From: Cyanidioschyzon merolae
Lineage: Eukaryota
Reading direction: 5' to 3' (one strand)
Assembly: GCA_000091205.1 (NCBI GenBank)
Contig: AP006491.2
Length of the DNA stretch: 64,000 nt
Translations under genes and position numbers: made by a program
The notes under the pieces: generated by a model
Databases searched by the model: none
Seen by the model: only the letters and a program-made list of their open reading frames with translations
What the model was told of the DNA's origin: nothing
Part shown: piece after piece, positions 2,097-57,238 of the stretch
How the letters are laid out: each line of letters starts with the position of its first letter
Position numbering within the stretch: position 1 is the stretch's first letter

Positions 2097-5016
2097 TGGG
2101 GGTGCTTGCTCGTTTGAAAAATCGCACGCAGTGCGCAAAATGGACACAGTTAGTTGCAGCGTTGCCCGGCAGCTGCCGCGCACTGCGGTGTTTCCCATGA
2201 GTACACTGCAGAGCTGTCGTGTACGCGAGTTGACCGCTTATCCTTTTTTTGAGTCCAGCCCGCATTTATTGCTTTGTAAGGGCTTTGACCAGGGCGGCTT
2301 GACAAGGATCGCGCTCTAGGATTGCATCCGTCCAAGAAGCTTTGTGATTCCGCCTAGTAAGGCGATAGGCTATTAGCTAGCGGTGTTCTGTTTCCGTGGT
2401 GACCATGCAGCGCAAACGCAGAATTCGGGCAGTAAGAGACTCTGACGGACGGTATGGAGAGCAGAACAAGTTGCTACATCACAGGGGCACTTGGTCTGAT
2501 GATGTGTAAAAAGTTATCGGGTGATATGGGCAATTAAAAGTTTTCGGACCCAGTGAAACCCTATGTTTTGATGCCTCTTCACCATGCGTGCATCGCATAA
2601 TCTTGGTTGCGATAAAGCCGTTCGGCATCGACTGGTGTCGGGCCTGAATTTTGAAGGTTCTCAAGTGAAACGAGCACGCCTGTGGGAATGTTGGAGGCCC
2701 ATTCGGCACGGAGCTCCCGGTCGAGGAGGATACGCTGCGAGGTGAAGGGCAACATGTAAGCCTGCTGTTCAGCACTCTGGATGCACGCATCGGGACTCCG
2801 CCATTGTCATGAATCGGAGTGAAGGCACAGGATGAAAAGGAGGCAGTTTTATGGACGAAATGCCCCGATGGCCTCTCCAGCAGTTCCTCGTACCTGCTGT
2901 GTCGAAGCTAACGTGGTCTATGCGTTCCACGAGACGCTCTGCAGATTAAGTTGGATCTCGTTCCTGGGTCGACATTTTCGATGACGCGCATTCCGAAGCT
3001 TCACTGGATACTTGCTGCTCACGCGACCGCGCCTCTGTGAAGTCTCGTGCTTATAGTTTGGGATGCACACTCCAATCAAATCCGGGTTCGGCAAGCAGTA
3101 CTTGTGTCATGCGAATCACGGTTGAGAATGTATGGAAACCGCTTCATGTGTTGATAAAAAGGTAAACAATGTCGAATGCACAAGCACTACCGAAAGCGCC
3201 GGACTTGAATACTATTCGGAAAGGTCTCTGACGTCTGGGCTTTTGTGGAGAATCGGTTTTCGAAGCGTGTCGATGGATTCTAGTCGGAAACGCAAGCAGC
3301 GCGCGTCGCTTCAATGCGCTCTACATATGTTTTTTCAATTTTGTGCAGCACAGCGTTTGACTCGTCATGACCCGCGTAATAACAGGACATGTCATAGAAA
3401 CGCAATCAAGTTGAAGACGCGCGGTCAGTGCTTTTGCTGGGATGTACCTCTATGATCATGTGTGTTACGAAGCGCATGCATGTGCTGGCTTCTGCAAAAC
3501 TCGGCTGCGCCCATGTCAGAATAGAATAGATTCGATACTTGATAATTGCGTACACATTAAAGATTGGCGTCCTGCCCACAGTTATTAATACCAGTTTTTC
3601 GGGCTATTTCCGCGACTGATTGCTTCTCCTCTCGAAATCTAAGGTTTTCAGTATGCTTTTCTGCCCTGTCCCTTCGGCTCCGTCGTCGGCAGTCGAACGA
3701 TATGGATGGATGCGTGAAAGCACCGATTGGGCGCTTCGCAGCTGTTGTCAGTGAAGTCGTGGTCAGATTGTAGTTGCGATCTATGCTCAACATGCGATTT
3801 CCATCATCTTACCACATAGCATCGGTGCGCGTCTCGCAGATGTGGTCCTTCACTGCGCTCAGGCGCTCGCATATGTCCAGGACACCTCCCGCTCGGTACG
3901 CTTCTCTGTTGAGCGTGAACGTTTTCATCAGCGCACTGTACATGTCCGTGACCGGTACAGAAGGCTCTGCTGGATGCGCTCATATATTCCCGCGCCAGGT
4001 GTCTCGCCGCACGATCACAGTCTCCTTCAGGGCTATCTCGTCCGCGAGGACTATGTGTTGTGCAGGCGCAAGCGCACACTGTTCCATTCGATGGCGGCTT
4101 TCTGGAACGCGGTGATGTCGGCCTTGATATGAGAACCAGAATGAAAATCCAGTGTCGAGTAAAGGCTGAGAAATTCGGACAAGTGAACGGCCTCTTTGTG
4201 CGAAATGGTGACACACCCTCCATCGGAGGCGATCGATGCGAGGACTGAATTCCGAGTCCAAGGACCCCCTTCCTTACAAACTGAAGAGACGGGAGCGCCC
4301 GGAAGCGCGTCCCGTGAGCCATTCCGTGCTGCTGCTGTCGAGTGTCGACGCGTCGATAGCCACCAAGAGGGAGGGGTGGATCGTACGAACGGAGTGGGTT
4401 CTAGTTTGACCTGACGACTTCGTTGAAGTTTCGGAGTGTGCTTGAGAGCAAGTCGTCACGGGTCGATGTCGAGCTTTTCTTCTTGTGAGTGTTGCTGCGC
4501 GAGGTGCAGCGCACACGAGCTGCGCTCATGTAGAAAGATCGATAATTTGTAGAATGGGCGATTTGAGCATTCTCCACGGAAGGAAAGGGGAAAGTGGAGG
4601 CTTCCTGACATAGATTGGGTAATTATTTTTGTTCACCACAGACCCTATTTCAACACAGCCTTGGATCAGTTTGATTCCGATGGCGATCACGATCTCCAGC
4701 GGAAAAGCATCGAGGGATCATACCCGAAGAGATGCAAAACATTCTTAAACTATTCATGAATCCGCAAACCCGTATTGCTGCACTTGGCATTTCGTGGCTA
4801 TACATCTAGAAAAAGAGCGGCGAAAGAATGGTTGAGCAGGATCACAGCGAGCACCTCCGTCCTCCAAATTGAACAGACATTGGTGGCGGAGTGTCACGTG
4901 ACATCTCTCGTGCGGATCGCCGATCGCGCCGCGCTGATGCCGCGGCGTTTTCGTTGCGATGTTGGCGTCCAGCACTCTGTGCGCCTTGGAGCAGAGTTTG
5001 AGCAGGAACTACACAG

Positions 5017-13381: not shown

Positions 13382-13495
13382 GATATCCTGCTATGCACCG
13401 CTGTGTATATGGGGGAGCGGAGTAGGCGAAGTGGAATTGAGTTGAAAGACTTAAAGCGCGCGTAACCTCCGCTCGTTCCGATAAATTGTTGAATC

Positions 13496-22738: not shown

Positions 22739-25292
22739 ACCAATAGGCCCTTGTCCATGGGACCCAGATAAATGACTTTATGAGAAAGTTAGCACTATCT
22801 ACAAGCAACGAAGCCGCGTTCAAATGATAGCCACCAGTCTCGATCGACATCTCTGTCCAGTACCATGCCCTTTCCACCTACCAGATGAAGACTGAATCCT
22901 GAACAGCTCGCTCTCGTCCTGCATTTCGATTTTTTCCAAACATGTTTTAGTTTTAAAGCCTCTACATTCAGAATGCAGGACCAAGCGCTGACCAATTCAT
23001 ACTTTGCTTCAGGCTTTACGCTCTTATTTTAGGAGCGACTCTTTCAACTCCCTGCCGCTAGAATTCGATAGGTCTCAAAAATCAAAAAGATTCGGCACGC
23101 GCTGGAGAAAGAAGTTATGAAAATGTCGATGCAATTATCCAATGCATCCACACCTGCCTCCTTTGGTGTCCGTTCCTAAAATGCAGCATGCCAGAATCAA
23201 GCATTTTTCAAGTTTTCGATTTTTCAGTCTCAGCGCATCTCGTAGTGGCAGCGAGTAGCGCAGCTAGGTTCACGAGGAACAATATGAAATCGAAGTTGGC
23301 CATTGATGTTTACTCCACTAGTGCATGCTAGAAGTGCTCTGAACTTCTCACGTCATATAACCGGTTCTTTTCGTAGTACAACTTACCTCTACTTGTGGAT
23401 ATCGACGAAAGGCGCTTACTTGCAGCATGATACCTTTTAGGGAATTTGCTTTCAAAAGATCCCGCTGCGTTTCTTTGATAGGAAATCGTCATGGACTTGG
23501 ACATAAATCGCTGCAGGCATCAATTCCAGCTACGAAAGCTTCGCAGAATCACACGAAGTTATCGTAGACGCCTCGAAATTCTTGATGGTACCTCCAGCAC
23601 GGATTTTTCTTCCGGTAATCGTTTCATCATGAACAACCTCGCTTTCCTCGGATCCAATCCTGTTCGGAAAAGAGAAGAGAAGGCAACAGAGTATGGCTCG
23701 TATCATATGCTCTACCTTATTCTCAATCGTTCAGCCGGGTCTAAAAACCTCATCAGTGCTGTGAAAGAAAGCAAATGTTCAGCAAACGTGTGGAACAGCG
23801 TGCGCTTCCGCGTGCAACGCACGGGGTACTCGTCGACGGAATTGGCGAGAAGATACCCGTGATCGCACGTTACGGCCCTGGGTGAGCAAACAAAGCAGGG
23901 CATCGGTGCCCGCATACGGTAACCTTCAAGAACATGTGCCGAGCAATGAAGCAAACGTTCACGTGCCAAAGAGCGGCTCCCGAATGACCAGGAGATATGT
24001 TGGAAATCTGGGCACACTTGATCACGTCCGTGTCGCAACTGCAAAGCGCGCCGATACTGTATACAAAAAAGATGAATGTGGGGAGCCATCCGTAGATCGC
24101 AAATTCCGTCTGTGCGTGAAATGCGTAGGCAAAGACCGGAAGAAACGAAATCGGCGCTGAAACGATGCCATCAACATCACTCGACTGCTGACAACGGAGC
24201 TGGAGGGACCGAAATGACTGACTTATCGAGAGTCAGAGACAAGGCAATGGAAAAGAAACCAGTCGCAGAAAAAGATCGCAAAAGCTAATCCTCGTGAAAA
24301 GGGGAAGAGATCCAAACCTTTAAATTCCACACCCGGGCTAGATGACGCGTTCGATTTTATTGTGACATGGGTTTATAGAGCGCTCTGGAGCATCGCCACC
24401 GACTTCAAAATGATCTCAGCCTCGCCATCTGTTGTTCGTATCCAAAAATGCACAGCATCGTGAGCAATGCAGTTGTACGAGCTGCGTGATTCAATTGCCA
24501 TCGCGATACAAAATGATAGAAACCTCGTTTCACGTGCAGCCTTGAAATTAGTAGAGAGGCATAGCCGACAAACCGCTCACGGAGAAAATACTTCCAGCCA
24601 AGTCGCCATGAACGCGGGCGCCACGACACGATGCTGCCAGGAGATGTTGTCTTCACGAATTCAGAAACCAGGCCAATGCTTTCAGCAGTTGACTCACAGG
24701 AAAGAACAGTTGGCCACGGGCCAATAAACGGTGAAACCTGTAGCGATGCGCGCGACTCTGTGAGCAGTCGCCGTAAAGGTTTCGGTCGCCCAACCTCGGG
24801 GTTCGCTCTCTGCGACTTTGCCTATTTGTTCGAATGCCGCCAAGCAGATGATCATACGCACTCAGGTCGACCTGATACAGTGCGACGCACTGTACACGCC
24901 AACCTAATGGTCTCAAACTCGGGATAGGAACACCAATGTTCTCTGAGGTAAACTTCCACCGGGTAATTGCCATCTGAGGAGCCAAAGGTTATGATATTTT
25001 GTATTTGCTTTTTCGAATGATCCGTAAAGACAATTCGGTTGGCAGCTGTGCCACTGAACAAGACGTCAGCTACATGGCAAAGCGTGATGTGTGGCGCAAA
25101 TGACGGCTAACTTGAGGTGATCGGTACTGACACCTCCACAGGTATTCTCTGCGCTCGTTAATGCGCCCTGTCAGAAGCAAAATGCCAGACTAAAGGACCA
25201 TAATTCATGAAAAGTTCTAACAATTACGAAAAGTTTTCTATGATACACTCTTATGCGTCGATCCGCAGCTTGAACAGCTGCCGCGGTGCGGG

Positions 25293-25736
25293 TCACGGGT
25301 GGTCATCGTCCTTGGATGCAATAGAAGCTTTTCTCAAGCTTTCCTCATACGCTGCGAGCTTCTCAGCATACGCAACCCATACACAGGTCTCACAGCCGTT
25401 ACCGCAACAATCGTAAGGTCCTGGCTCTTCTGGAGGTTGCAAGACTGAAGCGGCTTGCACGCCAGGAGAGGCTTCTTTCATAGATTCCGCCTTACCGGAC
25501 TTCTCGCCGTCGCGTGCTTCTGTCACACTACCCAGTGTGCTGAGGCCTTGGTTTACACGAGCGGGGATTGACGGCCGAGAAACGAGAGCTTCTGCGACAG
25601 TGCCTTCTGTTCCACGGCCTTCTTGCTCAGCTCGCGGTTCAACGCTCGTAGCACTTGACAATTCACGGACGTGCGAAGTAAGCAACGCTCGTTGAGCACA
25701 ATTTCGGTGACTTGGAGCGAAGTTTCCAGTACGCAT
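25293..25736 (-). CDS. Oxidoreductase-like domain protein (OXLD1-like), probable mitochondrial
   Basis: C-terminal motif …PEEPGPYDCCGNGCETCVWVAYAEKLAAYEE…, which matches the Oxidored-like PF09791 'CC-x-x-GC-x-x-CVW' pattern. Confidence 0.55.
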   Translation of the reverse strand: MRTGNFAPSHRNCAQRALLTSHVRELSSATSVEPRAEQEGRGTEGTVAEALVSRPSIPARVNQGLSTLGSVTEARDGEKSGKAESMKEASPGVQAASVLQPPEEPGPYDCCGNGCETCVWVAYAEKLAAYEESLRKASIASKDDDHP

Positions 25737-25845
25737 ATTCTGAAGCGCTAAGCTTACGAAGGGTGCGCAGCCTTCGAGTCACTGCCGGAATGAGATCCCT
25801 CGAGCCGTCAGTGTTTTCGTCGTCTGAGGTCTTTATTAGAATCTA

Positions 25846-27321
25846 TATATATTCAGTAAAACAAAAAACGTTCTATGACCATTGAGGGTCAATACATATA
25901 CCCACATGCGGACGCCTCCCAGCCTTTTTTGACCCGCCGCCTGCAATCGGTTCCAGTTGATTCACGCACACTTCGAGCCTCAGCAGTTGCCACATAGCGT
26001 TGGATCGTGTCAGCTGCTCGGGTCTCGTCTTCAGCACAACGCATCGTCTGATATTGGTAGCAGCGTTCAAGTCTCGGCTTACGAGCTCCATGCGTTTACT
26101 GCCGATCCCTGATCTCATCACACCGAGGGTTCTTAGTACTCGTGCCCTCTGTTCCGCTACAGTCTCGTCATCGTTCCACTCGACAAACACCGTCCCTCGC
26201 CTATCTCCTTCTTCTCCTTCTTCGCCACTTGCTCTTCTTCGCTCGATGGTCGGCGAGAGGAGGCATTTTTCGTTCTGGCTGCGTCGAATCCAGCAATGAC
26301 GGAACTCAGGATCCCCGACTTCCACATCCATACCATTCCCTTGGATTCTCTGTTTCTTCAAAATCATAGCGATTGTTCATTCGTTTAGGTGAGGACCTTC
26401 CCGCAAAAGCTAGGACTCGCGAAAGTAAGACACCATGCGCCCGTGTGTCAACGTGTGCCGGAAGCTTCAGCGATGACCCCACTGGAGCGACATCATACGT
26501 TTCACAATGGAAAACATTCTTTTGATGAGGTTGAATCAAGTAGAGCACAGAGGAATGAAAAGCAGCACTATACCTCGACAGGATCGGCAAAAGCCCGAAC
26601 GCAAGGGGAATGGTGAAATGCCACGGTGTCCAGCAGAAGGACGTCGCCCGACGTCGGGGCGAAATCTTCCATGATTCGATCAAGTGGCTGCTGTTGGTCG
26701 ATGAGCCTTCTCCACTAGTGAATCTGAGGCCGCAAATAAAGTCCACTCCGTCTGGAGCAGATGATGACATCCTCGCTCTCTTCGAGCTCGATCGTACATC
26801 CAGCGGGTGCACTGTCCGCGAATACCCATTTACGCTCCGGCCGCCTCGTCCGAAGCAAGTTTCATCGACTGAACAAGCAAACCGACGTCCGTGTCCCGGT
26901 CCCTGTGCTCCATACGGATAGTGGCGTTCCACGAACGCTGAAGTAGCTGTGACCTCGGTGGGAAATGGCCGTGCACGAACTGAGACTTTCTTTTTGCGAC
27001 TGTACCCCGTGTATTCAGGACCACTCGAACACGCTTTTAAGGAACAGGGACGCGCGTAGCGACTACTATTTTCGCATTTGTCTTTCGTAAAAGGTGGTCA
27101 GCGGGCCGTTTTCTACCGTTGATCGCGCGCATTCTCTGAGAATATCGATGTTTGACGCAGAGTGCATCTACTTCTTTCGGTCAGTGTTCGTCAACCATCT
27201 GAGTACTGTTGTACGACCGACCTGGAGGAGGAACGCAGTCCTCCATGCACTGTTCAGGAAAGAATATGTATCGCACAGGCGATTCGCCTACGATCTATCG
27301 GGTACATGGCATCGTGATTTC
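25846..27321 (-). mobile_element. Fanzor/TnpB-like repeat element, copy B (3'-end variant 2)
   Basis: ORFs 26306..26932 and 25873..26367 (…SRDLNAATNIRRC…). Shares the variant-2 3' module (ccattgagggt.aata.atacccacatgcggacgcctcccagcc) with copies C and E. Confidence 0.6.
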
Positions 27322-27623
27322 TAGCTGCTATGATTGCCCGCAGCGGGCGTGCAAAACATTGATTTGAAAGACTAAAAAATCGAAATCGCCGGTCTGGTTT
27401 TTGCGCGCGCCCCCAGGAATAAATTCTATCGCGTTTGAAATTTATACATTTCCCACGTTCAGTACTCATCGCAATGGCTCTAGCGAAGCACGTGATACAC
27501 GCAGGGGCCAATAACTGGCTGGCATCATGAGTAAGACTGCTCCAATTTCTTTTTTTGGCAAATGAAGAATTCCGACGGACTGCCCTGTACGGAACGATAA
27601 TTGATTCGCTTTCCTACCACGGT

Positions 27624-28683
27624 GTCAGATTCATAAAGAGAACACTTAACTGCTTTCTCTGTGGCCGTCGTTCGATTTGCTTCTGAACTTTTGTTCAGAC
27701 GTACAGCTTCGGCATTCGAAGCGCATCAGTAATGTTCTACGAACTCATAGGTATGTTGGAGATTCCGGGTCCTCGTTTCTGAGCACTCCTTCGACTCTTT
27801 GGTGCTGAACGTCGTGGACATCACGGTCAGCGAGACGTCGACGACGACCCCGGACGCTGCTTCTGGGAGCAACCGGTATCAGCAGCCAGTTTCTAAACCT
27901 TGGTCGAATATTCCTCAAATACGAGGGCGCCGAGGCGAAGATAGGCCTGCCGCCTGCGAGCGAGCCCGGCGTGAGTCTCAGACGTCTTGGCCGCATCGTC
28001 GCTAATAAACAGTACATGCGGGCTCGACACCCACGAGTTGGCAAGGTGTCTCGATTCGCGTCAAGCTCATCGGCACTTTTTGTGCGAAGAATTGGCAGAA
28101 AAACGAAGAGCGGGCAAGGAGGCGGGGTCCGAGTACTCGAATCCGACAGCGCGCACACAAATGTGCAGCGAACAGAGTACTCGCTGAGGAAATCACCCGG
28201 GAGAGGCCTGTGATCATTGGGCATGGCGCAGCGCGCGGAAACGGAGGACGGCATCGGGCGGAGCCTTCTGGAACGGTAAAGCGCATGTACCGAGGGATGG
28301 TTCAAGCGTTTACGCGCCACACAGTGGCGCTCAGAGGCGGTGGAGGACTGGTGGATGCACATGGGAACACCTGACCAGGTCCAAGTGTAACGGGTGGGGA
28401 GTGCACCCCGAGGCCGTACAGAAAGAGGATGCAAATGGTAAACGAAGCTCAGATCGTGACTCGCGCCAGTGCATAAAACGGGTCTACAACAGCGAGAAGC
28501 CGCGAAACAGAGACTTCAACGCTACGATCAGTATCCTTCGGCTGGTGACCATGGGGCTGGAGAGACATGAGCAACCGGCGTATTCAAAGCCAGAGGCGAG
28601 AGGGGAAATGGAAGCGATAGCGGTAAAAGCCCGCCAAGGCCGTCGTTTGCGGTAACGGTGAGTGGCACGAACTTTCGAGTATA
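27624..28683 (-). repeat. Unclassified ~1.06-1.08 kb dispersed repeat ('Repeat-2'), copy 1
   Basis: >97% identical to 41733..42810 (inverted) and 49411..50489. All three copies lie on the 5'/LE side of a Fanzor-like element copy. Here a 300-bp unique linker (27322..27623) separates it from copy B. Its internal ORFs (229 aa, 134 aa, 84 aa) are compositionally biased and overlap on both strands, so they are probably not coding. Confidence 0.7.
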
Positions 28684-28839
28684 TGCCTGAGATACGTAAT
28701 TAGACCTGTTGCATTTAAGTCTGACGTAGGTCCAGGCGGATCTCCACCGGCTGCCCCAACTTGAATTACTCTACAGATCTTGCGCTATCTGCAACAGCGA
28801 ATAAATGGAGACCCCAGCGCCGCACCCATACAATGTGCT

Positions 28840-31080
28840 CTACAGAGGCTGCGCCATCTGTAACAAGAAATGACCTGCGTGATTGACCGCTGTACCGATA
28901 TCCAAACCGATGTAAGCATCGTCAAGAAACTGAGCGATCCACCGCGGAAGTTTTTGTAGAAGAGCCGGTCTTGCGTATCGCCTGTCGGCAAAAATCATAA
29001 TGCCATAGTCCTGCTTGTTGCGTATAACACGGCCTACGCACTGGGCCGCCTGCCTCATTGCGTCGAAAACAAGAAACTCATCTTCCCGTATCTGATAACG
29101 TTGCTGCAGATATGAGAGACGTGCCTTCAGCAGACGAGATTCACTGTATTGAAAAGGAACACCGAAAAGTAATGCGCACCGCCCATAGTGATTATCAAAA
29201 TCTATGCCCTCTGCTGCGCGGCCGCGAGCGACCGATAGCAGCACAGCGCCCCTGCCCGCGTCACAGGCCATGCGATAATGTTTAATCGCAAGACCAGCCT
29301 CGACAGCGTCCTGAGTTTCAACAAATGTGAGCTTCAGTTTCTGTAGACGCTGGAGGATATCGCTCTCTACCCATTGGGAGACAATGTCATGCATGAATTC
29401 ATAGCTGGGGAAAAAGCAAACAACGCCATCCGGGACAATATCGGCCATATTGAGGAGCAATTCTCCATAGTTCCGAGCAATCGATATTTCCTTCCTCGTG
29501 CTGTACTGCGAGCTGATGGGGGACTGATCGACCCCCCGCGTCACAATCAAGGGACACAGACACGCCCGCTCTAAGGACATTGGAAATGATTCTGCGATCG
29601 CTGCCCTGAAAGTCAGCAACCGCGGATAGAACCACAGAGGGCTCAACGTTCCAGATGTGATCACCACGCTTTTGAATCGAGTCAAGACCGGTCGCATGGC
29701 AAGTGATGCATCCAGGCACGCAAGGTGAAAAATTCTCTCCTCCGGGTCATTGATCACCACAAAGCCTGCAGAATAGGTTCCTAGGAGCGTGCAGAAATCA
29801 CTCAGCTTTTGCAAGGGAGAGAAGGCTGCAACATCAGATATTTCCAGTGCCCATAGCAATGAAACGAGTCTGTCTGAGGCGAGCTGGAGCGCTCTTCGCT
29901 CTGTGCTGAGTCTATGGCATACAGCAAGCGCCATGCGCTGCGCTGTCTCTTCCATGATAAGATTGGAATCGACCAGTTCCTGCACGTAACTCAAGATCTG
30001 GCGCAAAAACTGTAGGAATCCAACAGTCGATTGGATTTCTGGACACAGGGATATTCGCATTTGATCAGGTATCATAGCACTGGCATCCGGCGCTGACTCC
30101 ACAACCAGCGATGGCAGTGCGCTTGGATCGAGGCCAGCTATCTGCATATCCCGAAGCTGCGATTCTCGGTCCGCGGTGCTGATTCCCCATGCAAGACGCT
30201 CATATTCTTGGTGGAGTCGTTCCACACCGCGTCGTTTCATCTCATGGACTCTAGAAGAGAGTGTATTCAGATTCCGAGCCGCGCACTGGAGTAGCTGGTC
30301 ATTCAGCTGTACGCTGAAGGCCTCGGTACAAACATTGTCAATATTATGAGCTTCATCGAAAACTATGATCGTATCGGGACCGAAGTCGCTGCTCACAACA
30401 CGGCTTACTCGAGGATCCAGAATGTACTGATAACTATAAACCACAATATGAGCAAAGGGAACCATCTGACGCGCCAGAAAGTAGGGACACCATCCTACGC
30501 GAGCGCCAAACTCTCGCAAGTCCGAAATAGAATACGCTGCACCGGCTGGTAGAATAAAGTTTTGTGAAGCCGCCGAAGAAAATCGCTCGTAAAAAGGACA
30601 GAGACCTGGTGGAATATCGACCTGGTGTCCATGATCAGTCGACTGGTATGCCCTCTCTCGAACCCACGAAGCAGTAAGCGCACGGCAGGCACTTTCCACA
30701 CCGCGTGGATTGTGTAAAGCCTCCTCGAGCACACACAGGTGGCTCCGGGCAGCGAGGCCAACACATAGAAGCTCGGAGGGATCTCCGCGGTTCGCTTGCA
30801 TTGTTGCAAAGAGGCGCTTCGCCTCAGCCAGCACCTTTTCCATCTCTTCAACCGTTCGGGTGCAGTAAACAAGTTTCCTGTAAACTAGCGGCCAACGGCT
30901 GATGTATGAACTCGCTAGGCTCAGGATGCTAACGGTCTTACCGGTACCGGAGGGCATTTCGATAACGGCATGACCTCCAGCATCAAGGGCACGTTTCAAT
31001 GACCGCATGTACTGTAGCTGCTCGGGGTACGGTTCTCTGTAGGGAAAATTCACGGCAAGGTCCTCGATATCGACTATCAT
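28840..31080 (-). CDS. ERCC2: TFIIH/NER 5'-3' DNA helicase XPD (Rad3/ERCC2)
   Basis: N-terminus MIVDIEDLAVNFPYREPYPEQLQYM. Walker A …MPSGTGKTVSLL…. Fe-S domain cysteines. DEAH box …IIVFDEAHNIDN…. The XPD-specific …IVVYSYQYILDP…. C-terminal …SGTLSP… and …GRVIR… motifs. Confidence 0.9.
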   Translation of the reverse strand: MIVDIEDLAVNFPYREPYPEQLQYMRSLKRALDAGGHAVIEMPSGTGKTVSILSLASSYISRWPLVYRKLVYCTRTVEEMEKVLAEAKRLFATMQANRGDPSELLCVGLAARSHLCVLEEALHNPRGVESACRALTASWVRERAYQSTDHGHQVDIPPGLCPFYERFSSAASQNFILPAGAAYSISDLREFGARVGWCPYFLARQMVPFAHIVVYSYQYILDPRVSRVVSSDFGPDTIIVFDEAHNIDNVCTEAFSVQLNDQLLQCAARNLNTLSSRVHEMKRRGVERLHQEYERLAWGISTADRESQLRDMQIAGLDPSALPSLVVESAPDASAMIPDQMRISLCPEIQSTVGFLQFLRQILSYVQELVDSNLIMEETAQRMALAVCHRLSTERRALQLASDRLVSLLWALEISDVAAFSPLQKLSDFCTLLGTYSAGFVVINDPEERIFHLACLDASLAMRPVLTRFKSVVITSGTLSPLWFYPRLLTFRAAIAESFPMSLERACLCPLIVTRGVDQSPISSQYSTRKEISIARNYGELLLNMADIVPDGVVCFFPSYEFMHDIVSQWVESDILQRLQKLKLTFVETQDAVEAGLAIKHYRMACDAGRGAVLLSVARGRAAEGIDFDNHYGRCALLFGVPFQYSESRLLKARLSYLQQRYQIREDEFLVFDAMRQAAQCVGRVIRNKQDYGIMIFADRRYARPALLQKLPRWIAQFLDDAYIGLDIGTAVNHAGHFLLQMAQPL

Positions 31081-31549: not shown

Positions 31550-32000
31550 TATACCCACTCGCAGAAGCCAGACAGCAAAACTACCGGCCTCTTGTTATCG
31601 TTTCAGTTAATCCAGGCAAACTTCGAGCCTGAGACATCTCCACGAATTTGGATCGCGCCAGCTCCTCGGGTCTCGTCTGCAGAATCGCTTATCGTCCGAT
31701 ACTGATGGCGGCGTTGAAGTCTCGGTTCAAAAGCTTCTTGCACGTATTGACGCTGTTGAACTCACCAATGCAAAGATTCCTCGAACTCGTGCCCTCCGTG
31801 CCACCATAGTCTCGTCATCGTCCTGTCGGGCAAACACCATTTCTCGCATACCTCCCCATTGTTGTTCTCCTTCGTCATACGCTCTTCTTCGATCGATGAT
31901 ACACAATGAGGGGATTTTTCGTTTTGGTTTTGTCGAACCCGGCGATGACGGCTTTTCGAGATCCTCGACGTCCATGTCCGTACCCTTCCCTTGGATCTTT
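31550..32000 (-). mobile_element. Old, degenerate fragment of the same Fanzor/TnpB-like family (copy F, ~70% nucleotide identity)
   Basis: Nucleotide homology to the 3' ~450 bp of the element, e.g. …cactcgcagaagc…cttcgagcctgagac…ctcgggtctcgtctgcag…. ORF 31727..31975 (MDVEDLEKP…DDDETMVARRARV…) parallels MDVEVGDPE…NDDETVAEQRARV… in the young copies. A shifted frame reads …LLNRDFNAAISIGR*. Confidence 0.55.
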
Positions 32001-33544
32001 TATTTCTTCAAATGGACGCACTGCGGAAGCGTCTGATATAAATCGCGAAAAACCAGTAGACGACATGTAGTAGGGGTGGAACCCAAACGAGGTAAGAGAC
32101 TATAAAATGCGACACTGAACTGCTCGCTCTTTGGCTGCCTTGCGATTTTTCCGAGCTTTTCTTGAGATGCGGATCCAAAATTCCAATTGTAGCAATTAGG
32201 ACCGAGGATATCGTGGGTATAATGGGCTTCTTTGTCGTCTTTTCAAAGTGACACCTTCGACTCTTTGCTTCTAAAATCCGTTATGCCACCGTCAGCAAGA
32301 TGATTTACGATGCCTTCGAAAGCGAGTTCTTAAAATAACCGCGATCATTGTCCAATTCACACATACAAGCCTCCATTCTCTTCTCCTTTCTTTACGTCTA
32401 GTATGCGCACATCGCGCATTCTGCAAGGTTAAAATCTTTCCGTTTCGAGACTGCTCGTAGGATTTGCAATTTGCGCTGCTGGGTGGACGAGAAGAAAACT
32501 CGACGCAGTACCCTGAAGACTTTTTTGCAAGCTCCTGCCGTAAGTTCAAGGAACTGTTCACTTCAAACAATAGGTTCCGTTCGAATCGCCAATTTTCTTC
32601 TGTTTGCGGCCACCGACCATACGATTCTCGACAACAGCATGATGGCTTAAACGAGATAAGCTCCCAGAGGCCCCGTCGATTTTGCTTGCATGGAAAAGGG
32701 TCTTTGACACGAATTCCAGCCTTCGCAGCGATCGCTTTCGGTAGAAATTGCATCCGTGCTTTGCATGGAGTGTAAATGGATCGAGATTCCTCGAGTCGTT
32801 CTCCAATCTACATCCCCCTCCGATGTGTGATTCAAGGCGAACAACATTGCGTTCAACAAATCTATCATCGGATAGAGAGGCATGTCCATGCGCGAGCAGC
32901 AGGCCAAGAACTCGCCGGCTGTATAATCCCGAAGCAGCCCATGAGCGCAGAGTACGCCACGGGGCGCGCAAACGGAGGAAAGCATTGGTAAGATCCTTCT
33001 ATATCCGTCAAGGGCATTTCCTGACCGATAATGCAAATGCTCCCGCGCCGCAGGGCAGCCCGTGGTGCAGATGTGATGGGAAAATGGAAAAACCTGGTTA
33101 CAGCCGAGTGTCACCTCTGCGAAAGGCACACCGGAGCTGTACAAAAAGCAAATGAAAAAGGCGAACGAAGCGTGGATCGCAAATTGGAACTGTGAAAGGA
33201 TTGCGTTGATAGCAGCGGGAAGAGGCGAAATTGGGTCTATAACGCTGGTATGATCCCCTTTAGCTTACGGCCATGGAGCTGGTAGGACGTGAATGATCAG
33301 CGTAACTGAGGCCGGAGATTAGACAGATGAGAAGAAATCAGCTGTAGAAAACGCACTCTAAGGCTGGTGTTGGTGAACGTGGGAAGAAATCCAAAATTTG
33401 AGAGTAAACGTCCGTGTTATTTGAGTGGACCTGTTCAATTTTACTCTATGCTGGGTGTGTCTCTGATCTAAACAAGGGAGTGGCGCTTCCCCTGTTCCAA
33501 AGTCGAATAGTTGAACAATTGCTAACGGCTCGCTTGCTCTCACT

Positions 33545-34738: not shown

Positions 34739-37700
34739 AACGTTCCGCTCTCTGGGTCTGTGGAAAGCACCAGCGTGCAGGTGACCGTGCTCCAGTGATC
34801 AGACGCCACTGGGGATCAAAATGTTTCACCAGTCATGAACCAAGTTGGCGCATGCGACTTTCTCAGATGACAGAACGTTTAGATTGACCATAGCTCCCAG
34901 AATTCGGAATGGATAATAGCTTTCGGGAGAGGGTCCATGATGAAGCGCCTATCTTAGAGTTCCATTACCCATACTTGCTCTCGGATATACTGGTCGTTTC
35001 GTATGCTCGATCGTGCGACAAGTGCCTGCCGTGAACACCCGCCGTGGCGCTTATACCACTGAAGCAGATGCTGCACGGAGACAGAACGGCTTTGCCATAC
35101 CACTGAGGGCGCCCGCTCGAAGAATGATTCATTCAACATAGGGTCGGAATACATAATAATAATCCTGGGAGCCTGTAAGCTGCGCAGACAGATGCGCTGC
35201 CTGCGACAGCGCGAAGCGATACACTAAGAGTCCACTGCGACCAGGGTGACGCCCAGACGCAGCATCCTGCTCCTAGTCCCAAAGTGAATTCCGTTGCGGA
35301 CGAGCTGCGCAGGTCTCGCCACAGCACCTGCCACTGGTGGAAGCGTGAAGCACTAGGCCTGCAGACTCGTCCGGCTCGCGGGACCTTCTGCCTAGAGGGT
35401 AAACTTTCGAAGATACTGAAACTTTTCCCCATTTCGACGCTTATTATCAATGTCGAAAGAAACTGTTATCGAGTTGCTAGTCAGTGGTTAGTTTCTGTTA
35501 TTTCTTCCCTAGGAGAGTACTTGCTGCTCACGGGACGGGCACAACTGGAGGGCCCACCAGTCCGAGGACTGGCCTTTGCTGCCGCTATCTCTATTCAAAG
35601 CCCTGCCGAGTGCTCTCTCATTTTCTCTCTCTACAACCTCCTGTCCGCGCCCTTGGCCAAACCTGTGAAAAGATATCGCTCGCGTCACTCGTGTTCATAT
35701 GTAGGGTACATTGGCGCATGCGATACCCAATGAAATCGGCGTCGTCATCTAACGGATTGGTTGCTAGACTTTGCGCGGCTGTTGGAGAAGTTATTGTATG
35801 GCCTGGCACCAAAGCATATCAGAGTTTGCGCGAACTTCCCGGTTTGGCTTGACAGGGGTGCCAGCTGTGGAAAATCCATCTGATGAACCATACGCCTTCC
35901 GATACTTCGTGCTACAGTTCAGAATTCGGTGTTCAGTTCGCGATGACGAGTGGCTAGGCGTTTGGGGCTCGCTTCCTCTGCTGCACGATTGTTTCAACGC
36001 ACCACTTCCGATGAAAAAACTACGTCGCTCAAGGGGCCAGATCGAGTGGGCTTTGCGTGTGCGTTTTCCAAAGCATCTTTATGACGGTTGCGAGTTTACG
36101 TATATATACTGCCTGTTACGGAAAGTTTCTGCGGATAGCCAGTATGAATCTTCCTACGAAGTCGTTGGCTGCGAGCCCTGTCCGTTACGCAAAAGTATTC
36201 TGAGCAGCGAAATCTTGCCATACGGTTTCTACGAACATGACGATCGCTGGGGTCATAATGACGGGAAGGTATATCCAAGGCAGGATCGCCTGGGTGTACT
36301 TGTATACAAGCATCTTTCGCGAGACGCCGCTCCATGCCGCATATCATAGGCAAGAGACAAAGTGACAGCTTGAACGCGCACGTCACACTTGTCTGCAGCA
36401 CTTTGACGTTTATGAGAAAGCGCTCAAGGTGTAGTCGAAAATTCCATCTCACGTGGCCCAAATGCACAGCGACACAGCACTTCATAGAGCGCGCTCCACC
36501 GGCAAACACGAACGGCGGCAGGCATCAATCGTGACCCTGTGCCCGAGCGGAATTTCCTCTGTTCTTACGACTTACAGTTGTTCCGCTCGGTGCAAATATT
36601 TCCTACTCAGCTTTAGTTGATAATGAGGCCGAGATCCCCAATATCTGGAATATTGGAATGAGAAGCATGAAGTCGTTTCGTGGTGGCGTCGATTAGCAGC
36701 AGTCTACCTAGAGAAATCGCCTATCCGCTCTTTTGCCCCCGGCTTCTTGTTGTATTTGGAGCTGTAATTTCTGGAATCATTGTACCAGAGCACCTTTTTG
36801 GTTTTGGTCTGTTTTCGTCGCAGTTATGGAACGAAAGCAATGTGTTCTGTAGATTCGAGAGAGGTCCCGGAAGTATGCTATACTGTCACTGTTAACTTGA
36901 GAAAGAATGGCCTTGGCCCTAGAGCTCACTTCTTCCACGGTAAGCAGGTTGATCAACCAAACATGTAGCAGTCCTTATTCTTAACGTCTCGCAATCTAGA
37001 CAGAATTTATGAATCTCCATTCACGCGAACGTCTTTTGATCAATTCATTCTGCACCATAAGCTCCGTGGGAAATTCTATCCAAGAATCCACGCGATTTTA
37101 AGCTTCCTTACCCCTGATACGAACGATAATGAAGAAACACGGATGGACAAGGAAAAAACACATTCTCGTGCGAGACCGTCGCATCTTGAACAACAGACTA
37201 CCGATTCCATACAGAAACGCGAAAGCTCATTACAGGAGTGAAGGGCGATCGCCTCACTCGATGCAGACTCATTAGGAAGAAATGGTAGACCTCTAGATGG
37301 ATAATTAAAGAGGGAGTAAACCATTTTTCATGAAGAAGAGACAAGCGAGAATGAGGACAATATTAGTCGTATCGGCAATTCGATCCTGTGGTCGCCTATA
37401 TGTCACTTAGATGACAGGGCCTGTCAACACCTTATCCATCATCGAAAGCGTCTGAAAGCTTTTCTTTTCAGTATTTCTCTTTAAAACTTGTCGAGAAAAC
37501 AGTTGCCATGACTCCAACGCGTTTAGAACATACGCAGCTGAGATTGGCGTGAAGCCGCTCCACGTGCCCACCTACTTTCACTGGTTCAGCCGAGTCGGGG
37601 GCGCACTCTCTGTGGTCAGACGCCATGATCACGCTCATGGATTCATGAAAGTGTCTTTTGTGTCCATTACACCGTTTTGTGACGAGCCTATTTTCTACAA

Positions 37701-41732: not shown

Positions 41733-42810
41733 TATGTTCCCGAACTCACGACTATACTCGAAAGTTCGTGCCACTCACCGTTACCGCAAACGACGGCCTT
41801 GGCGGGCTTTTACCGCTATCGCTTCCATTTCCCCTCTCGCCTCTGGCTTTGAATACGCCGGTTGCTCATGTCTCTCCAGCCCCATGGTCACCAGCCGAAG
41901 GATACTGATCGTAGCGTTGAAGTCTCTGTTTCGCGGCTTCTCGCTGTTGTAGACCCGTTTTATGCACTGGCGCGAGTCACGATCTGAGCTTCGTTTACCA
42001 TTTGCATCCTCTTTCTGCACGGCCTCGGGGTGCACTCCCCAGCCGTTACACTTGGACCTGGTCAGGTGTTCCCATGTGCATCCACCAGTCCTCCACCGCC
42101 TCTGAGCGCCACTGTGTGGCGCGTAAACGCTTGACCCATCCCTCGGTACATGCGCTTTACCGTTCCGGAAGGCTCCGCCCGATGCCGTCCTCCGTTTCCG
42201 CGCGCTGCGCCATGCCCAATGATCACAGGCCTCTCCCGGGTGATTTCCTCAGCGAGTACTCTGTTCGCTGCACATTTGTGTGCGCGCTGTCGGATTCGAG
42301 TACTCGGACCCCGCCTCCTTGCCCGCTCTTCGTTTTTCTGCCAATTCTTCGCACAAAAAGTGCCGATGAGCTTGACGCGAATCGAGACACCTTGCCAACT
42401 CGTGGGTGTCGAGCCCGCATGTACTGTTTATTAGCGACGATGCGGCCAAGACGTCTGAGACTCACGCCGGGCTCGCTCGCAGGCGGCAGGCCTATCTTCG
42501 CCTCGGCGCCCTCGTATTTGAGGAATATTCGACCAAGGTTTAGAAACTGGCTGCTGATACCGGTTGCTCCCAGAAGCAGCGTCCGGGGTCGTCGTCGACG
42601 TCTCGCTGACCGTGATGTCCACGACATTCAGCACCAAAGAGTCGAAGGAGTGCTCAGAAACGAGGACCCGGAATCTCCAACATACCTATGAGTTCGTAGA
42701 ACATTACTGATGCGCTTCGAATGCCGAAGCTGTACGTCTGAACAAAAGTTCAGAAGCAAATCGAACGACGGCCACAGAGAAAGCAGTTTAGTGTTCTCTT
42801 TATAAATCTG
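41733..42810 (+). repeat. Repeat-2, copy 2 (inverted relative to copies 1 and 3), continuous with Fanzor-like copy C
   Basis: Near-identical to 49411..50489 and 27624..28683. Joined to copy C through the same ~110-bp linker sequence seen in copy D. Confidence 0.7.
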
Positions 42811-44370
42811 ACATGGACTAATGGTCTATAAACTCAACTGTATTCCTGCCGCACTGTGTATGATCGAATGCTGTTTGCGGTCTAGGGCGGGGGCCAGAAA
42901 TCACGATGCCATGTACCCGATAGATCGTAGGCGAATCGCCTGTGCGATACATATTCTTTCCTGAACAGTGCATGGAGGACTGCGTTCCTCCTCCAGGTCG
43001 GTCGTACAACAGTACTCAGATGGTTGACGAACACTGACCGAAAGAAGTAGATGCACTCTGCGTCAAACATCGATATTCTCAGAGAATGCGCGCGATCAAC
43101 GGTAGAAAACGGCCCGCTGACCACCTTTTACGAAAGACAAATGCGAAAATAGTAGTCGCTACGCGCGTCCCTGTTCCTTAAAAGCGTGTTCGAGTGGTCC
43201 TGAATACACGGGGTACAGTCGCAAAAAGAAAGTCTCAGTTCGTGCACGGCCATTTCCCACCGAGGTCACAGCTACTTCAGCGTTCGTGGAACGCCACTAT
43301 CCGTATGGAGCACAGGGACCGGGACACGGACGTCGGTTTGCTTGTTCAGTCGATGAAACTTGCTTCGGACGAGGCGGCCGGAGCGTAAATGGGTATTCGC
43401 GGACAGTGCACCCGCTGGATGTACGATCGAGCTCGAAGAGAGCGAGGATGTCATCATCTGCTCCAGACGGAGTGGACTTTATTTGCGGCCTCAGATTCAC
43501 TAGTGGAGAAGGCTCATCGACCAACACCAGCCACTTGATCGAATCATGGAAGATTTCGCCCCGACGTCGGGCGACGTCCTTCTGCTGGACACCGTGGCAT
43601 TTCACCATCCCCCTTGCGTTCGGGCTTTTGCCGATCCTGTCGAGGTATAGTGCTGCTTTTCATTCCTCTGTGCTCTACTTGATTCAACCTCATCAAAAGA
43701 ATGTTTTCCATTGTGAAACGTATGATGTCGCTCCAGTGGGGTCATCGCTGAAGCTTCCGGCACACGTTGACACACGGGCGCATGGTGTCTTACTTTCGCG
43801 AGTCCTAGCTTTTGCGGGAAGGTCCTCACCTAAACGAATGAACAATCGCTATGATTTTGAAGAAACAGAGAATCCAAGGGAATGGTATGGATGTGGAAGT
43901 CGGGGATCCTGAGTTCCGTCATTGCTGGATTCGACGCAGCCAGAACGAAAAATGCCTCTTCTCGCCGACCATCGAGCGAAGAAGAGCAAGTGGCGAAGAA
44001 GGAGAAGAACGGAGATAGGCGAGGGACGGTGTTTGTCGAGTGGAACGATGACGAGACTGTAGCGGAACAGAGGGCACGAGTACTAAGAACCGTCGGTGTG
44101 ATGAGATCAGGGATCGGCAGTAAACGCATGGAGCTCGTAAGCCGAGACTTGAACGCTGCTACCAATATCAGACGATGCGTTGTGCTGGAGACGAGACCCG
44201 AGCAGCTGACACGATCCAACGCTATGCGGCAACTGCTGAGGCTCGAAGTGTACGTGAATCAACTGGAACCGATTGCAGGCGGCGGGTCAAAAAAGGCTGG
44301 GAGGCGTCCGCATGTGGGTATATATTTACCCTCAATGGCCGGGAAGCATGTCTCGTTTTACTGAATATAG
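42811..44370 (+). mobile_element. Fanzor/TnpB-like repeat element, copy C (plus orientation, variant-2 3' end); with Repeat-2 it forms a 2.6 kb composite at 41733..44370
   Basis: ORFs 43286..43912 and 43882..44364 (…SRDLNAATNIRRC…). The 3' end is …ccattgagggtaaatatatacccacatgcggacgcctcccagcc. Confidence 0.6.
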
Positions 44371-47871: not shown

Positions 47872-49410
47872 AAAAAGATTCGCAATTGTGTGCGGTAAAA
47901 GAATATCCACTCGCAGAAGCTTATTATCCTTTTTTGACCCGCCGCCTGCAATCGGTTCCAGTTGATTCACGCACACTTCGAGCCTCAGCAGTTGCCACAT
48001 AGCGTTGGATCGTGTCAGCTGCTCGGGTCTCGTCTTCAGCACAACGCATCGTCTGATATTGGTAGCAGCGTTCAAGTCTCGGCTTACGAGCTCCATGCGT
48101 TTACTGCCGATCCCTGATCTCATCACACCGAGGGTTCTTAGTACTCGTGCCCTCTGTTCCGCTACAGTCTCGTCATCGTTCCACTCGACAAACACCGTCC
48201 CTCGCCTATCTCCTTCTTCTCCTTCTTCGCCACTTGCTCTTCTTCGCTCGATGGTCGGCGAGAGGAGGCATTTCTCGTTCTGGCTGCGTCGAATCCAGCA
48301 ATGACGGAACTCAGGATCCCCGACTTCCACATCCATACCATTCCCTTGGATTCTCTGTTTCTTCAAAATCATAGCGATTGTTCATTCGTTTAGGTGAGGA
48401 CCTTCCCGCAAAAGCTAGGACTCGCGAAAGTAAGACACCATGCGCCCGTGTGTCAACGTGTGCCGGAAGCTTCAGCGATGACCCCACTGGAGCGACATCA
48501 TACGTTTCACAATGGAAAACATTCTTTTGATGAGGTTGAATCAAGTAGAGCACAGAGGAATGAAAAGCAGCACTATACCTCGACAGGATCGGCAAAAGCC
48601 CGAACGCAAGGGGAATGGTGAAATGCCACGGTGTCCAGCAGAAGGACGTCGCCCGACGTCGGGGCGAAATCTTCCATGATTCGATCAAGTGGCTGCTGTT
48701 GGTCGATGAGCCTTCTCCACTAGTGAATCTGAGGCCGCAAATAAAGTCCACTCCGTCTGGAGCAGATGATGACATCCTCGCTCTCTTCGAGCTCGATCGT
48801 ACATCCAGCGGGTGCACTGTCCGCGAATACCCATTTACGCTCCGGCCGCCTCGTCCGAAGCAAGTTTCATCGACTGAACAAGCAAACCGACGTCCGTGTC
48901 CCGGTCCCTGTGCTCCATACGGATAGTGGCGTTCCACGAACGCTGAAGTAGCTGTGACCTCGGTGGGAAATGGCCGTGCACGAACTGAGACTTTCTTTTT
49001 GCGACTGTACCCCGTGTATTCAGGACCACTCGAACACGCTTTTAAGGAACAGGGACGCGCGTAGCGACTACTATTTTCGCATTTGTCTTTCGTAAAAGGT
49101 GTCAACGGGCCGTTTTCTACCGTTGATCGCGCGCATTCTCTGAGAATATCGATGTTTGACGCAGAGTGCATCTACTTCTTTCGGCCAGTGTTCGTCAACC
49201 ATCTGAGTACTGTTGTACGACCGACCTGGAGGAGGAACGCAGTCCTCCATGCACTGTTCAGGAAAGAATATGTATCGCACAGGCGATTCGCCTACGATCT
49301 ATCGGGTACATGGCATCGTGATTTCTGGCCCCCGCCCTAGACCGCAAACAGCATTCGATCATACACAGTGCGGCAGGAATACAGTTGAGTTTATAGACCA
49401 TTAGTCCATG
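47872..49410 (-). mobile_element. Fanzor/TnpB-like repeat element, copy D (variant-1 3' end); with Repeat-2 it forms a 2.6 kb composite at 47872..50489
   Basis: ORFs 48311..49171 and 47788..48372 (…SRDLNAATNIRRC…). The 3' module aaaaagattcgcaattgtgtgcggtaaaagaatatccactcgcagaagcttattatcc is shared only with copy A. Confidence 0.6.
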
Positions 49411-50489
49411 TCAGATTTATAAAGAGAACACTAAACTGCTTTCTCTGTGGCCGTCGTTCGATTTGCTTCTGAACTTTTGTTCAGACGTACAGCTTCGGCA
49501 TTCGAAGCGCATCAGTAATGTTCTACGAACTCATAGGTATGTTGGAGATTCCGGGTCCTCGTTTCTGAGCACTCCTTCGACTCTTTGGTGCTGAATGTCG
49601 TGGACATCACGGTCAGCGAGACGTCGACGACGACCCCGGACGCTGCTTCTGGGAGCAACCGGTATCAGCAGCCAGTTTCTAAACCTTGGTCGAATATTCC
49701 TCAAATACGAGGGCGCCGAGGCGAAGATAGGCCTGCCGCCTGCGAGCGAGCCCGGCGTGAGTCTCAGACGTCTTGGCCGCATCGTCGCTAATAAACAGTA
49801 CATGCGGGCTCGACACCCACGAGTTGGCAAGGTGTCTCGATTCGCGTCAAGCTCATCGGCACTTTTTGTGCGAAGAATTGGCAGAAAAACGAAGAGCGGG
49901 CAAGGAGGCGGGGTCCGAGTACTCGAATCCGACAGCGCGCACACAAATGTGCAGCGAACAGAGTACTCGCTGAGGAAATCACCCGGGAGAGGCCTGTGAT
50001 CATTGGGCATGGCGCAGCGCGCGGAAACGGAGGACGGCATCGGGCGGAGCCTTCCGGAACGGTAAAGCGCATGTACCGAGGGATGGGTCAAGCGTTTACG
50101 CGCCACACAGTGGCGCTCAGAGGCGGTGGAGGACTGGTGGATGCACATGGGAACACCTGACCAGGTCCAAGTGTAACGGCTGGGGAGTGCACCCCGAGGC
50201 CGTGCAGAAAGAGGATGCAAATGGTAAACGAAGCTCAGATCGTGACTCGCGCCAGTGCATAAAACGGGTCTACAACAGCGAGAAGCCGCGAAACAGAGAC
50301 TTCAACGCTACGATCAGTATCCTTCGGCTGGTGACCATGGGGCTGGAGAGACATGAGCAACCGGCGTATTCAAAGCCAGAGGCGAGAGGGGAAATGGAAG
50401 CGATAGCGGTAAAAGCCCGCCAAGGCCGTCGTTTGCGGTAACGGTGAGTGGCACGAACTTTCGAGTATAGTCGTGAGTTCGGGAACATA
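49411..50489 (-). repeat. Repeat-2, copy 3, directly abutting Fanzor-like copy D
   Basis: Near-identical to the other two Repeat-2 copies. Its far end (…gttcgggaacata) is shared with copy 2. Confidence 0.7.
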
Positions 50490-56810: not shown

Positions 56811-57238
56811 GAAAAACTCTAGTATCCGAGGTCGATTTCCTTCAAGTCAATGCGTTCCGGTTCGTCGTCTTATGCGCAAGTTGTGGAAGCTACGTGCTGT
56901 ATTCCGTGTTGCCGCATTTAGGTACGCATTCGCATCCAGAGCGCTCTTTGATGCGAACCGGTCCGCAATATGCAGCGCACATGGCAAGGACTCACACCGT
57001 CAAAGCACGCCGAGCTTCGCACATGAAACTTTTCGAAAGCTGGGAAAGATAATTTGCTCGTCGGTTACCGGACGGGCATCCAGAAGAGACGTATCGACCT
57101 TGTCGAGACATCAAAGGTTTTAGGTTTCTCGTTGCAGCGTCAAGTCGCGCGGACACAAATCCAAGTTTCTTAAGATGATCATCGAGCGGTCGAGGTGGTG
57201 CTCTGTGAGAATAAAGCACATCGCTCGCATCGGTGCTC

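Follow-up and report, generated by a model that had tools for sequence, protein, structure and literature searches.

Repeat-2 as the probable 5' arm of a non-autonomous composite relic in the interspersed Fanzor1 repeat family of Cyanidioschyzon merolae

Background

The compact genome of Cyanidioschyzon merolae is already known for repeats derived from Fanzor1, a few hundred in number, whose transposon class is unknown. An interspersed element about 3.2 kb long was described by Nozaki et al. (2007; PMC1955436), who counted 253 copies; these occupy about 5% of the genome and contain a truncated ORF that resembles WSV486 of WSSV. Bao and Jurka (2013; Mob DNA 4:12; PMC3627910) reported CMe-1A, an element of 3169 bp with a 734-aa Fanzor1 ORF, which has neither TIRs nor TSDs and belongs to an unknown class. 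The 5' 635 bp of CMe-1A are a separate repeat, TE-N2_CMe (Bao and Jurka 2013; PMC3627910). We took the CMe-1A consensus and the CMe-1 protein (CMe-1p) from the supplement of that paper and compared them with a 64-kb stretch of C. merolae 10D DNA (64,000 nucleotides, referred to below as the window), in which an original prediction had pointed out a repeat of about 1 kb, Repeat-2 (R2), next to copies of a Fanzor-like repeat.

Results and discussion

Layout of the young copies

Self-BLAST of the window confirmed that R2 occurs in three copies, each beside a Fanzor-like copy, at coordinates that had been correct to within 1-3 bp. The R2 copies (about 1.06 kb, n = 3) are 99.3-99.5% identical to one another, with 99.3% for copy B versus either C or D, and three 1-kb copies at more than 99% identity are far beyond chance. 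The Fanzor-like repeat (about 1.45 kb, n = 5) has a common core of 1398 bp at about 99% identity by the same method. Copies C and D have one continuous block of 2564 bp in common (99.5% identical in self-BLAST), and the last 20 bp of R2 in copy B (28684-28703) are a diverged version of the C and D end. The coordinates are as follows.

27623..28703, + strand: R2 copy B, a frameshifted relic from the 3' part of a Fanzor1 gene of the R2 type
41733..42813, - strand: R2 copy C, in an inverted composite with the relic gene on the - strand (orthologous metagenome contig, L009)
49409..50489, + strand: R2 copy D, from self-BLAST and tblastn
11928-13395: Fanzor-like copy A
25846-27332: Fanzor-like copy B, gene on the - strand
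44369-42831: Fanzor-like copy C, inverted
47872-49391: Fanzor-like copy D, gene on the - strand
55271-56810: Fanzor-like copy E

R2 had been placed 5' of the Fanzor reading frame. This holds in B, C and D, given that the frame is on the - strand in B and D.

The 1.45-kb unit proved to be a less uniform thing than the name Fanzor-like element implied, as only about 450 bp are Fanzor-derived and about 960 bp form an orphan block, here called X.

47872..48367, - strand: Fanzor piece, copy D
11928-12423: Fanzor piece, copy A
25846-26362: Fanzor piece, copy B
43855-44369, + strand: Fanzor piece, copy C
55271-55785: Fanzor piece, copy E
48368..49326: block X, copy D, about 960 bp, with breakpoints set by alignment with CMe-1A and with an old copy (31551..33425, below)
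~12424-13381: block X, copy A
~26363-27322: block X, copy B
~42896-43854: block X, copy C
~55786-56745: block X, copy E

The Fanzor piece consists of a CMe-1-type start codon and the first ~12-38 codons, joined directly to codons ~615-729 and the 3' end. By blastn, CMe-1A nt 895-1019 (the start codon region) and 2811-3088 match all young copies and nt 777-969 match the old copy, while the mini-ORF of about 150 codons is 41% identical to CMe-1p aa 615-729 in BLASTP (E 1e-24). The composite is thus homologous to CMe-1A at the ORF start, the 5'-UTR and the 3' end (blastn, UTR alignment and BLASTP), which places it in the CMe-1 family. Neither RuvC-I nor RuvC-II is left in the mini-ORF, which in copy C also has a frameshift, and no reading frame of the composite can encode a nuclease.

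Block X lies inside the 5'-UTR of all five young copies; neither the old copy nor the CMe-1A consensus has it. X gives no Pfam match on either strand, no database homologue beyond itself and no match to the N-terminal parts of R2-type proteins. An ORF in X is 286 aa long in A (12367-13227, - strand) and D (48311-49171, - strand) and 208 aa long in B, C and E; its composition is Ser/Arg-rich and antisense-like. We also considered X and R2 together as one + strand Fanzor gene, and rejected this because full-length R2-type proteins do not match X; the sole support for such a gene is a 27-aa patch at 49176-49256, on the strand opposite to that of the 286-aa ORF, with a weak resemblance to CMe-1p aa 116-142 (E 0.005-0.05).

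Repeat-2 as a relic of a second Fanzor1 gene

R2 is the pseudogenised 3' part (RuvC-II, zinc ribbon, RuvC-III and C-terminus) of a second, divergent Fanzor1 gene. This relic lies head-to-head with the internally deleted CMe-1-type Fanzor1 remnant, on the opposite strand. A short + strand ORF in R2 reads 'NRDFNATISI...EAIAVKARQGRRLR', and its CMe-1 counterpart reads 'NRDFNAAINI...EAVVGGRSKKTGRRLHV'. A tblastx comparison of R2 with the rest of the window identified older relatives at ~3.9, 24 and 33 kb (E down to 5e-16), the translations of which retain CxxC, 'NRRxNDAINI' and RD motifs. A conceptual R2 protein matched CMe-1p across 152 collinear residues (BLASTP, E 8e-5) and an R2-type profile matched Fanzor1 C-terminal halves with 96.8% probability (hhalign, E 2.7e-10, 133 columns); both results are somewhat biased in that the frameshifts were mended by hand with Fanzor sequences in view, a bias from which the uncorrected tblastn and tblastx matches of R2 are free. 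At the DNA level, an inverted match was found between R2 and the Fanzor piece of the old copy.

Better-preserved relatives bear on the same question. A database search returned P0014, an R2-type relic that is less decayed than R2 and matches all R2-type loci in the window without frameshift correction (E down to 1.7e-12). An exhaustive search with P0014 then yielded intact R2-type relatives of 680-875 aa, and four of the seven tested passed the Pfam cutoff for PF07282, the TnpB/Cas12f zinc-ribbon domain. The intact 756-aa metagenomic Fanzor1 P0015 maps onto R2 by tblastn with aa 542-627 and 667-750 (E 1.2e-20 for copy B; combined E about 1e-20), the match being on the - strand in C and on the + strand in the other two copies. 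P0015 and CMe-1p are distant from each other (22% identity, E 1.4e-8).

At least two frameshifts, together with in-frame stops across 27623-28703, leave no intact RuvC nuclease ORF in R2, and the coding remnant of copy B is recognisable from ~28102 to 28620. Measured against the motif D-X(125-275)-[TS][TS]-X-X-[C4 zinc finger]-X(5-50)-RD, as defined by Bao and Jurka (2013), R2 retains 'WEHLTRSKC' and 'NRDFNATISI' and has lost most of the cysteines, and a RuvC-I Asp cannot be recognised. The full set of four Cys positions was recovered only by pooling the older relics (CHLC at ~33.1 kb and CVKC at ~24.1 kb) with P0014 and P0015. A PDB sequence search with the R2-family profile gave no match. 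We rejected the idea that R2 is a decayed TnpA recombinase (IS607-like), since it has no Pfam matches and is Fanzor-derived; no gene for an IS607/IS605-type serine or Y1 recombinase was found, nor a Pfam family for any ORF of R2 or X.

The best-preserved or intact R2-type relatives are located on metagenome contigs L010 (P0014), L019 (P0094) and L020 (P0015), where their neighbours resemble giant-virus genes: Prim-Pol, PIF1 helicase and SET on L010 (44.7% GC), and RNA ligase, 2H-SAK and Peptidase_S74 on L019. Such a neighbourhood fits the spread of Fanzor genes by viruses.

The segment between the two remnants

The Fanzor-like part and R2 had been described as fused through a linker of about 110 bp, identical in C and D. 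The features between them are these.

49327..49408, - strand: 82-bp 'linker', copy D, homologous to CMe-1A nt ~790-870 and to 32013-32100 of the old copy
about 42814-42895: 82-bp 'linker', copy C
56746-56810: first 65 bp of the 'linker', copy E
27323..27622, - strand: '300-bp insert' of copy B, with a diverged 5'-UTR segment of about 60 bp followed by 240 bp

In the junction alignment the segment is indeed identical in C and D, although its length is 82 bp rather than about 110 bp. The same alignment upheld the presence of 300 bp in its place in copy B (27323-27622) and of only its first part, 65 bp, in copy E. Copy A, for which no linker had been reported, is not devoid of it, as A, B and E all carry diverged versions of the segment that end in a common ATTGAGTTGAAAGACT-like motif. 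The notion of a fusion joint was not sustained by alignment with CMe-1A, in which the segment corresponds to conserved CMe-1 5'-UTR; the 88 bp of the old copy, the young linker and the stretches that follow the core in A, B and E are versions of this UTR, with three variants among the young copies. R2 and the CMe-1-type remnant are therefore joined through normal CMe-1 5'-UTR.

The diverged UTR version of copy B (~60 bp) ends ATTGATTTGAAAGACT. The 240 bp that follow (27383-27622) have no match elsewhere in the 64-kb window and are missing from three metagenome assemblies of locus B; they represent older sequence left behind as an unconverted island or, alternatively, an insertion specific to the strain.

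The ATTGAGTTGAAAGACT-like motif is present at 13436-13455, 27358-27377, 56804-56818 and ~32085-32100, as well as at CMe-1A nt ~790-805. It marks the point on the 5' side where homology among different CMe-1-type copies stops, and its second half is similar to the first bases of R2-type units. The motif may be a junction or target motif.

An old composite and solo R2-type units

Three further loci in the window carry older R2-type units.

31551..33425: old diverged composite, with Fanzor piece, 5'-UTR segment and R2-type unit, and without X
31551-32012, gene on the - strand: its Fanzor piece, 70.7% identical to the young copies
32013-32100: its 5'-UTR segment
32101-~33425, relic on the + strand: its R2-type unit
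3559..4860, - strand: solo R2-type unit, 59.6% identical to the R2 part of the old composite over 1321 bp
22899..24345, + strand: solo R2-type unit, with CxxC and 'NRRxNDAINI' remnants at 24053-24244

The old composite aligns with copy D in three stretches (47903-48367 with 31551-32012 at 70.7%, 49418-49667 with 32101-32347 at 64%, and 49951-50433 with 32896-33371 at 60%). It is collinear with a young composite minus X, having 88 bp where the young copies have about 1050 bp, and its Fanzor ORF carries the same internal deletion. Its junction is homologous to that of C and D and differs only by an indel of about 19 bp. Because a copy that is only 60-70% identical has the same order and a homologous junction, the composite must be much older than the young copies suggest. 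The identical junction of C and D and the same order in the old copy likewise bear out the original prediction that R2 and the Fanzor-like part are one composite that was copied whole.

The R2 part of the old composite is about 60% identical, across about 1.3 kb, to 4860-3559 and to 22899-24345. In both of these solo units homology begins at the proximal boundary of R2, and no CMe-1 piece is attached. Overall, four of the six R2-type units in the 64-kb window are linked and two are solo, so the description of R2 as always linked applies to the three young copies (and there is an old linked copy as well) but not to the two old solo units. R2-type units are thus a repeat family in their own right in addition to being part of the composite. 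This agrees with one half of the proposal that R2 is an independent element, namely the occurrence of two solo units with the same proximal boundary; the other half, that of a preferred neighbour, is disfavoured by linked junctions that are identical or homologous. As assessed in this one 64-kb window, the linkage of R2 and Fanzor is one of descent. Among the metagenome contigs, an exact scan with R2 25-mers found loci B and C only, and a look-up by means of a spurious R2 ORF returned only locus B or short contigs containing nothing but the repeat.

Surroundings of the copies

The helicase ORF at 28840-31080 is 100% identical to XPD of C. merolae 10D (XP_005536319.1). At least 12 Fanzor-derived relics take up roughly a quarter of the 64 kb, versus a genome average of about 5% (Nozaki et al. 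2007), and between 3 and 57 kb nearly every intergenic gap contains one. Those listed are 3559-4860, 6216-6656, A, 22899-24345, B, 31551-33425, 34866-35507, 38318-39038, C, D and E. Two Fanzor1 relics are nearer to CMe-1 than to the R2 type: 6168-6737 (- strand; CMe-1p aa 561-694, E 7e-11), in which a 189-aa ORF remains, and 38318-39038 (+ strand; CMe-1p aa 462-702, E 1e-27). Directly downstream of a solo copy of TE-N2_CMe at 34866-35507 (83% to CMe-1A nt 2-640) there is no recognisable Fanzor ORF, and a second, weak TE-N2-like stretch (59%) occurs at 51459-51703. Contigs from hot-spring and other metagenomes (L001-L006, L011-L018 and L021-L025, from JGI, ENA and Logan) are 99.6-99.9% identical to C. 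merolae 10D here; they include repeats, and almost all of them break at the edges of the young repeats.

How the young copies became alike

The five young copies do not differ from one another in a tree-like manner. Sites 47997 and 48696 group A and C against B, D and E, whereas sites 49100 and 49105, together with the type of 3' end (T1 in A and D, T2 in B, C and E), group A and D against B, C and E, so that the four-gamete test is violated. Just outside the 99% core the sequence is homologous yet strongly diverged, and in copy A divergence climbs within the last 66 bp of X. This mosaic pattern, which comprises only about five informative sites in addition to the end types, fits ectopic gene conversion that may have overwritten older copies. 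The same reading accounts for the shorter copies, for which internal deletion or template switching had been suggested; these processes were neither demonstrated nor needed. Metagenome contigs L001, L023 and L024, from near-identical strains, show locus B with the 82-bp linker in place of the 300 bp, and loci B and C have alleles in common in L001 and L009. Because other contigs stop exactly at the R2 boundary, the 82-bp joins at locus B may be assembly-path artefacts, and with repeat collapse or a path artefact possible we regard the strain comparison at this locus as suggestive only.

Signs of a transposition event were sought at the ends of the composite. No TIRs were found there, as end-to-end inverted alignment scored no better than shuffles, and there was no duplicated flank that would represent TSDs. 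No empty site was found in related strains, as every contig anchored on flanking genes has the copy or ends within it. Since no empty site, TSD or TIR was found, the mobility of the composite is a property that we infer.

Could the young copies nevertheless be a recent transposition burst of a single master, with A and E 5'-truncated and conversion unimportant? We consider this unlikely, even though five intergenic sites within 45 kb are 99% identical across 1.4-2.6 kb. On the R2 side C and D stop at one and the same base, and the 3' boundary 'TCAGTAAAAC' is common to the T2 copies (B, C and E) and the old copy; for such precise common termini, a defined unit that transposed is an explanation equal to conversion, or a better one. 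A burst, however, predicts identity that is uniform up to the ends of the element and SNPs that follow a tree, and it is at odds with the diverged homologous segments outside the 99% block (the UTR variants of A and B, the T1 versus T2 3' ends), with the rise of divergence that copy A shows towards the end of X (last 66 bp) and with the four-gamete violation. A different objection would be that R2 is fully independent and that its adjacency to CMe-1-type sequence results from repeated, separate insertions of the latter beside R2 ends and not from one inherited composite. The solo units with the same proximal boundary speak for this, as does copy B of strain 10D, where a different UTR variant and a 240-bp spacer precede R2. 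The 5' end of CMe-1A is itself a whole other repeat, TE-N2_CMe (PMC3627910), a case which hints at a recurrent positioning of CMe-1 5' ends against the ends of other repeats. Independent events, though, would not recreate the same joint, and the junction is identical in C and D and, save for the ~19-bp indel, homologous in the old copy, so that separate insertions are disfavoured and seem to us quite improbable. One composite, inherited as such and homogenised by conversion, is the reading that we retain.

The possibility that R2 has a function of its own was also weighed. R2 cannot supply 5' exons to the neighbouring gene, as had been proposed, because it is what remains of a Fanzor1 C-terminal part encoded on the other strand; that, together with the homology of X to nothing but itself, led us to reject R2 and X alike as sources of 5' exons or of an N-terminal extension for that gene. 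A structured non-coding RNA, another suggestion, found no support from either Rfam or folding. Rfam gave no match at the gathering threshold in the whole window, nor at E<=1 in 25700-28850, and eight segments of R2 and element ends (144-150 nt) folded no more stably than shuffles (z -1.3 to +0.9); near-identical R2 copies yield no covariation signal for RNA structure. A search for tRNAs found none. Fanzor and TnpB systems encode their guide RNA at the 3' end of the gene, and R2 retains a gene 3' end, so one might suppose that it is kept for a role in cis, either as promoter or 5' leader or as a distal omega-RNA-type end on the opposite strand. R2 does lie directly upstream of the conserved 5'-UTR and start codon, and the interspersed elements are transcribed according to Nozaki et al. 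(2007; PMC1955436). We nevertheless hold such a role to be highly improbable given the Rfam result at E<=1 and fold energies equal to those of shuffled controls, and also because, in the old copy, R2 has diverged at least as fast as the rest (60-64% versus 70.7% identity), the downstream ORF is non-functional and is broken in copy C, and copies A and E persist without R2. Homing driven by Fanzor could explain clustered mosaic copies in yet another way, although we think it very unlikely. An intact Fanzor1 elsewhere, guided by RNAs from the composite ends, would cut related older relics, and homology-directed repair would then install the young sequence in those relics, X included and in some cases R2 as well; the whole of this sequence of steps carries the same low expectation. 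The pattern relevant to it is that two outward-facing Fanzor 3' ends bound the composite, that five 99% copies lie within 45 kb and that each identical block is flanked immediately by diverged homologous sequence. If true, homing would be a eukaryotic example of 'cut and copy' maintenance in the manner of TnpB between paralogous sites.

Conclusions

Our preferred explanation, to which we assign a probability of roughly 0.7, is that a non-autonomous composite transposon relic, which belongs among the interspersed Fanzor1 repeats of C. merolae, has R2 as its 5' arm. A truncated R2-type element would first have become a separate repeat family. A single deletion derivative of CMe-1 type would then have come to abut the proximal end of an R2-type unit, in the way that TE-N2_CMe forms the 5' end of CMe-1A, and the pair would have propagated as one unit by means of factors acting in trans. 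A later lineage would have gained the 960-bp block X. The 99% near-identity of the five young copies, with their sharp and differing block edges, would be largely due to ectopic gene conversion, copies A, B and E being older copies that were only partly overwritten. R2 would on this account serve neither the cell nor the element, its linkage being kept by inheritance with its neighbour. What each part is, how the parts are oriented, that the arrangement is old and that R2-type units also stand alone is shown by the data; the order of these events, the reliance on factors in trans and the homogenising role of gene conversion are what we infer.

One repeat lineage in this genome consists of a head-to-head pair of two different Fanzor1 remnants that have long travelled together. 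On at least two occasions an entire other repeat, TE-N2_CMe in one case and R2 in the other, has come to form the 5' end of a CMe-1-type element, and nearby copies are apparently held near-identical by recombination. These observations should be of use in annotating the genome and in working out how Fanzor1 elements without a recognisable transposase multiply.

In comparison with Fanzor1 RNA-guided nucleases, the eukaryotic homologues of TnpB, the gene ancestral to R2 has the same layout ('VIIGYG..G..KG..PVK', 'E..TT..CxxC', a second CxxC and 'NRDFNAAINI'), whereas R2 itself is a pseudogene fragment of about the last 215 recognisable codons, frameshifted and with cysteines lost. The composite resembles non-autonomous, nested or composite transposons subject to ectopic gene conversion in being internally deleted, in its mosaic of near-identical blocks with diverged edges and in its presumed dependence on trans factors. 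The term 'non-autonomous' refers here to the lack of coding capacity and not to a known transposase.

The closest described element is CMe-1A. It occurs in the same genome and likewise has no TIRs or TSDs, and its sequence is homologous to the Fanzor piece and 5'-UTR of the composite (65-68% DNA identity; 41% amino-acid identity for aa 615-729). In both, the 5' end of a Fanzor element is formed by a second repeat that also occurs alone, although the partner here is R2, an inverted Fanzor1 relic, and not TE-N2_CMe; the possibility that TE-N2_CMe is a diverged homologue of R2 was rejected because the similarity is not significant (E 0.3-0.5). The composite differs further in that its Fanzor ORF has lost codons ~39-614, in the extra 960-bp X of the young copies and in the 99% identity among these, CMe-1A copies being about 80% identical to their own consensus. 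With no TE-N2_CMe 5' end and an ORF of about 150 codons versus 734 aa, the composite is a different subfamily from CMe-1A. The composite with R2 is a subfamily-level addition to a repeat family already described, and not a new kind of element, mechanism or RNA.
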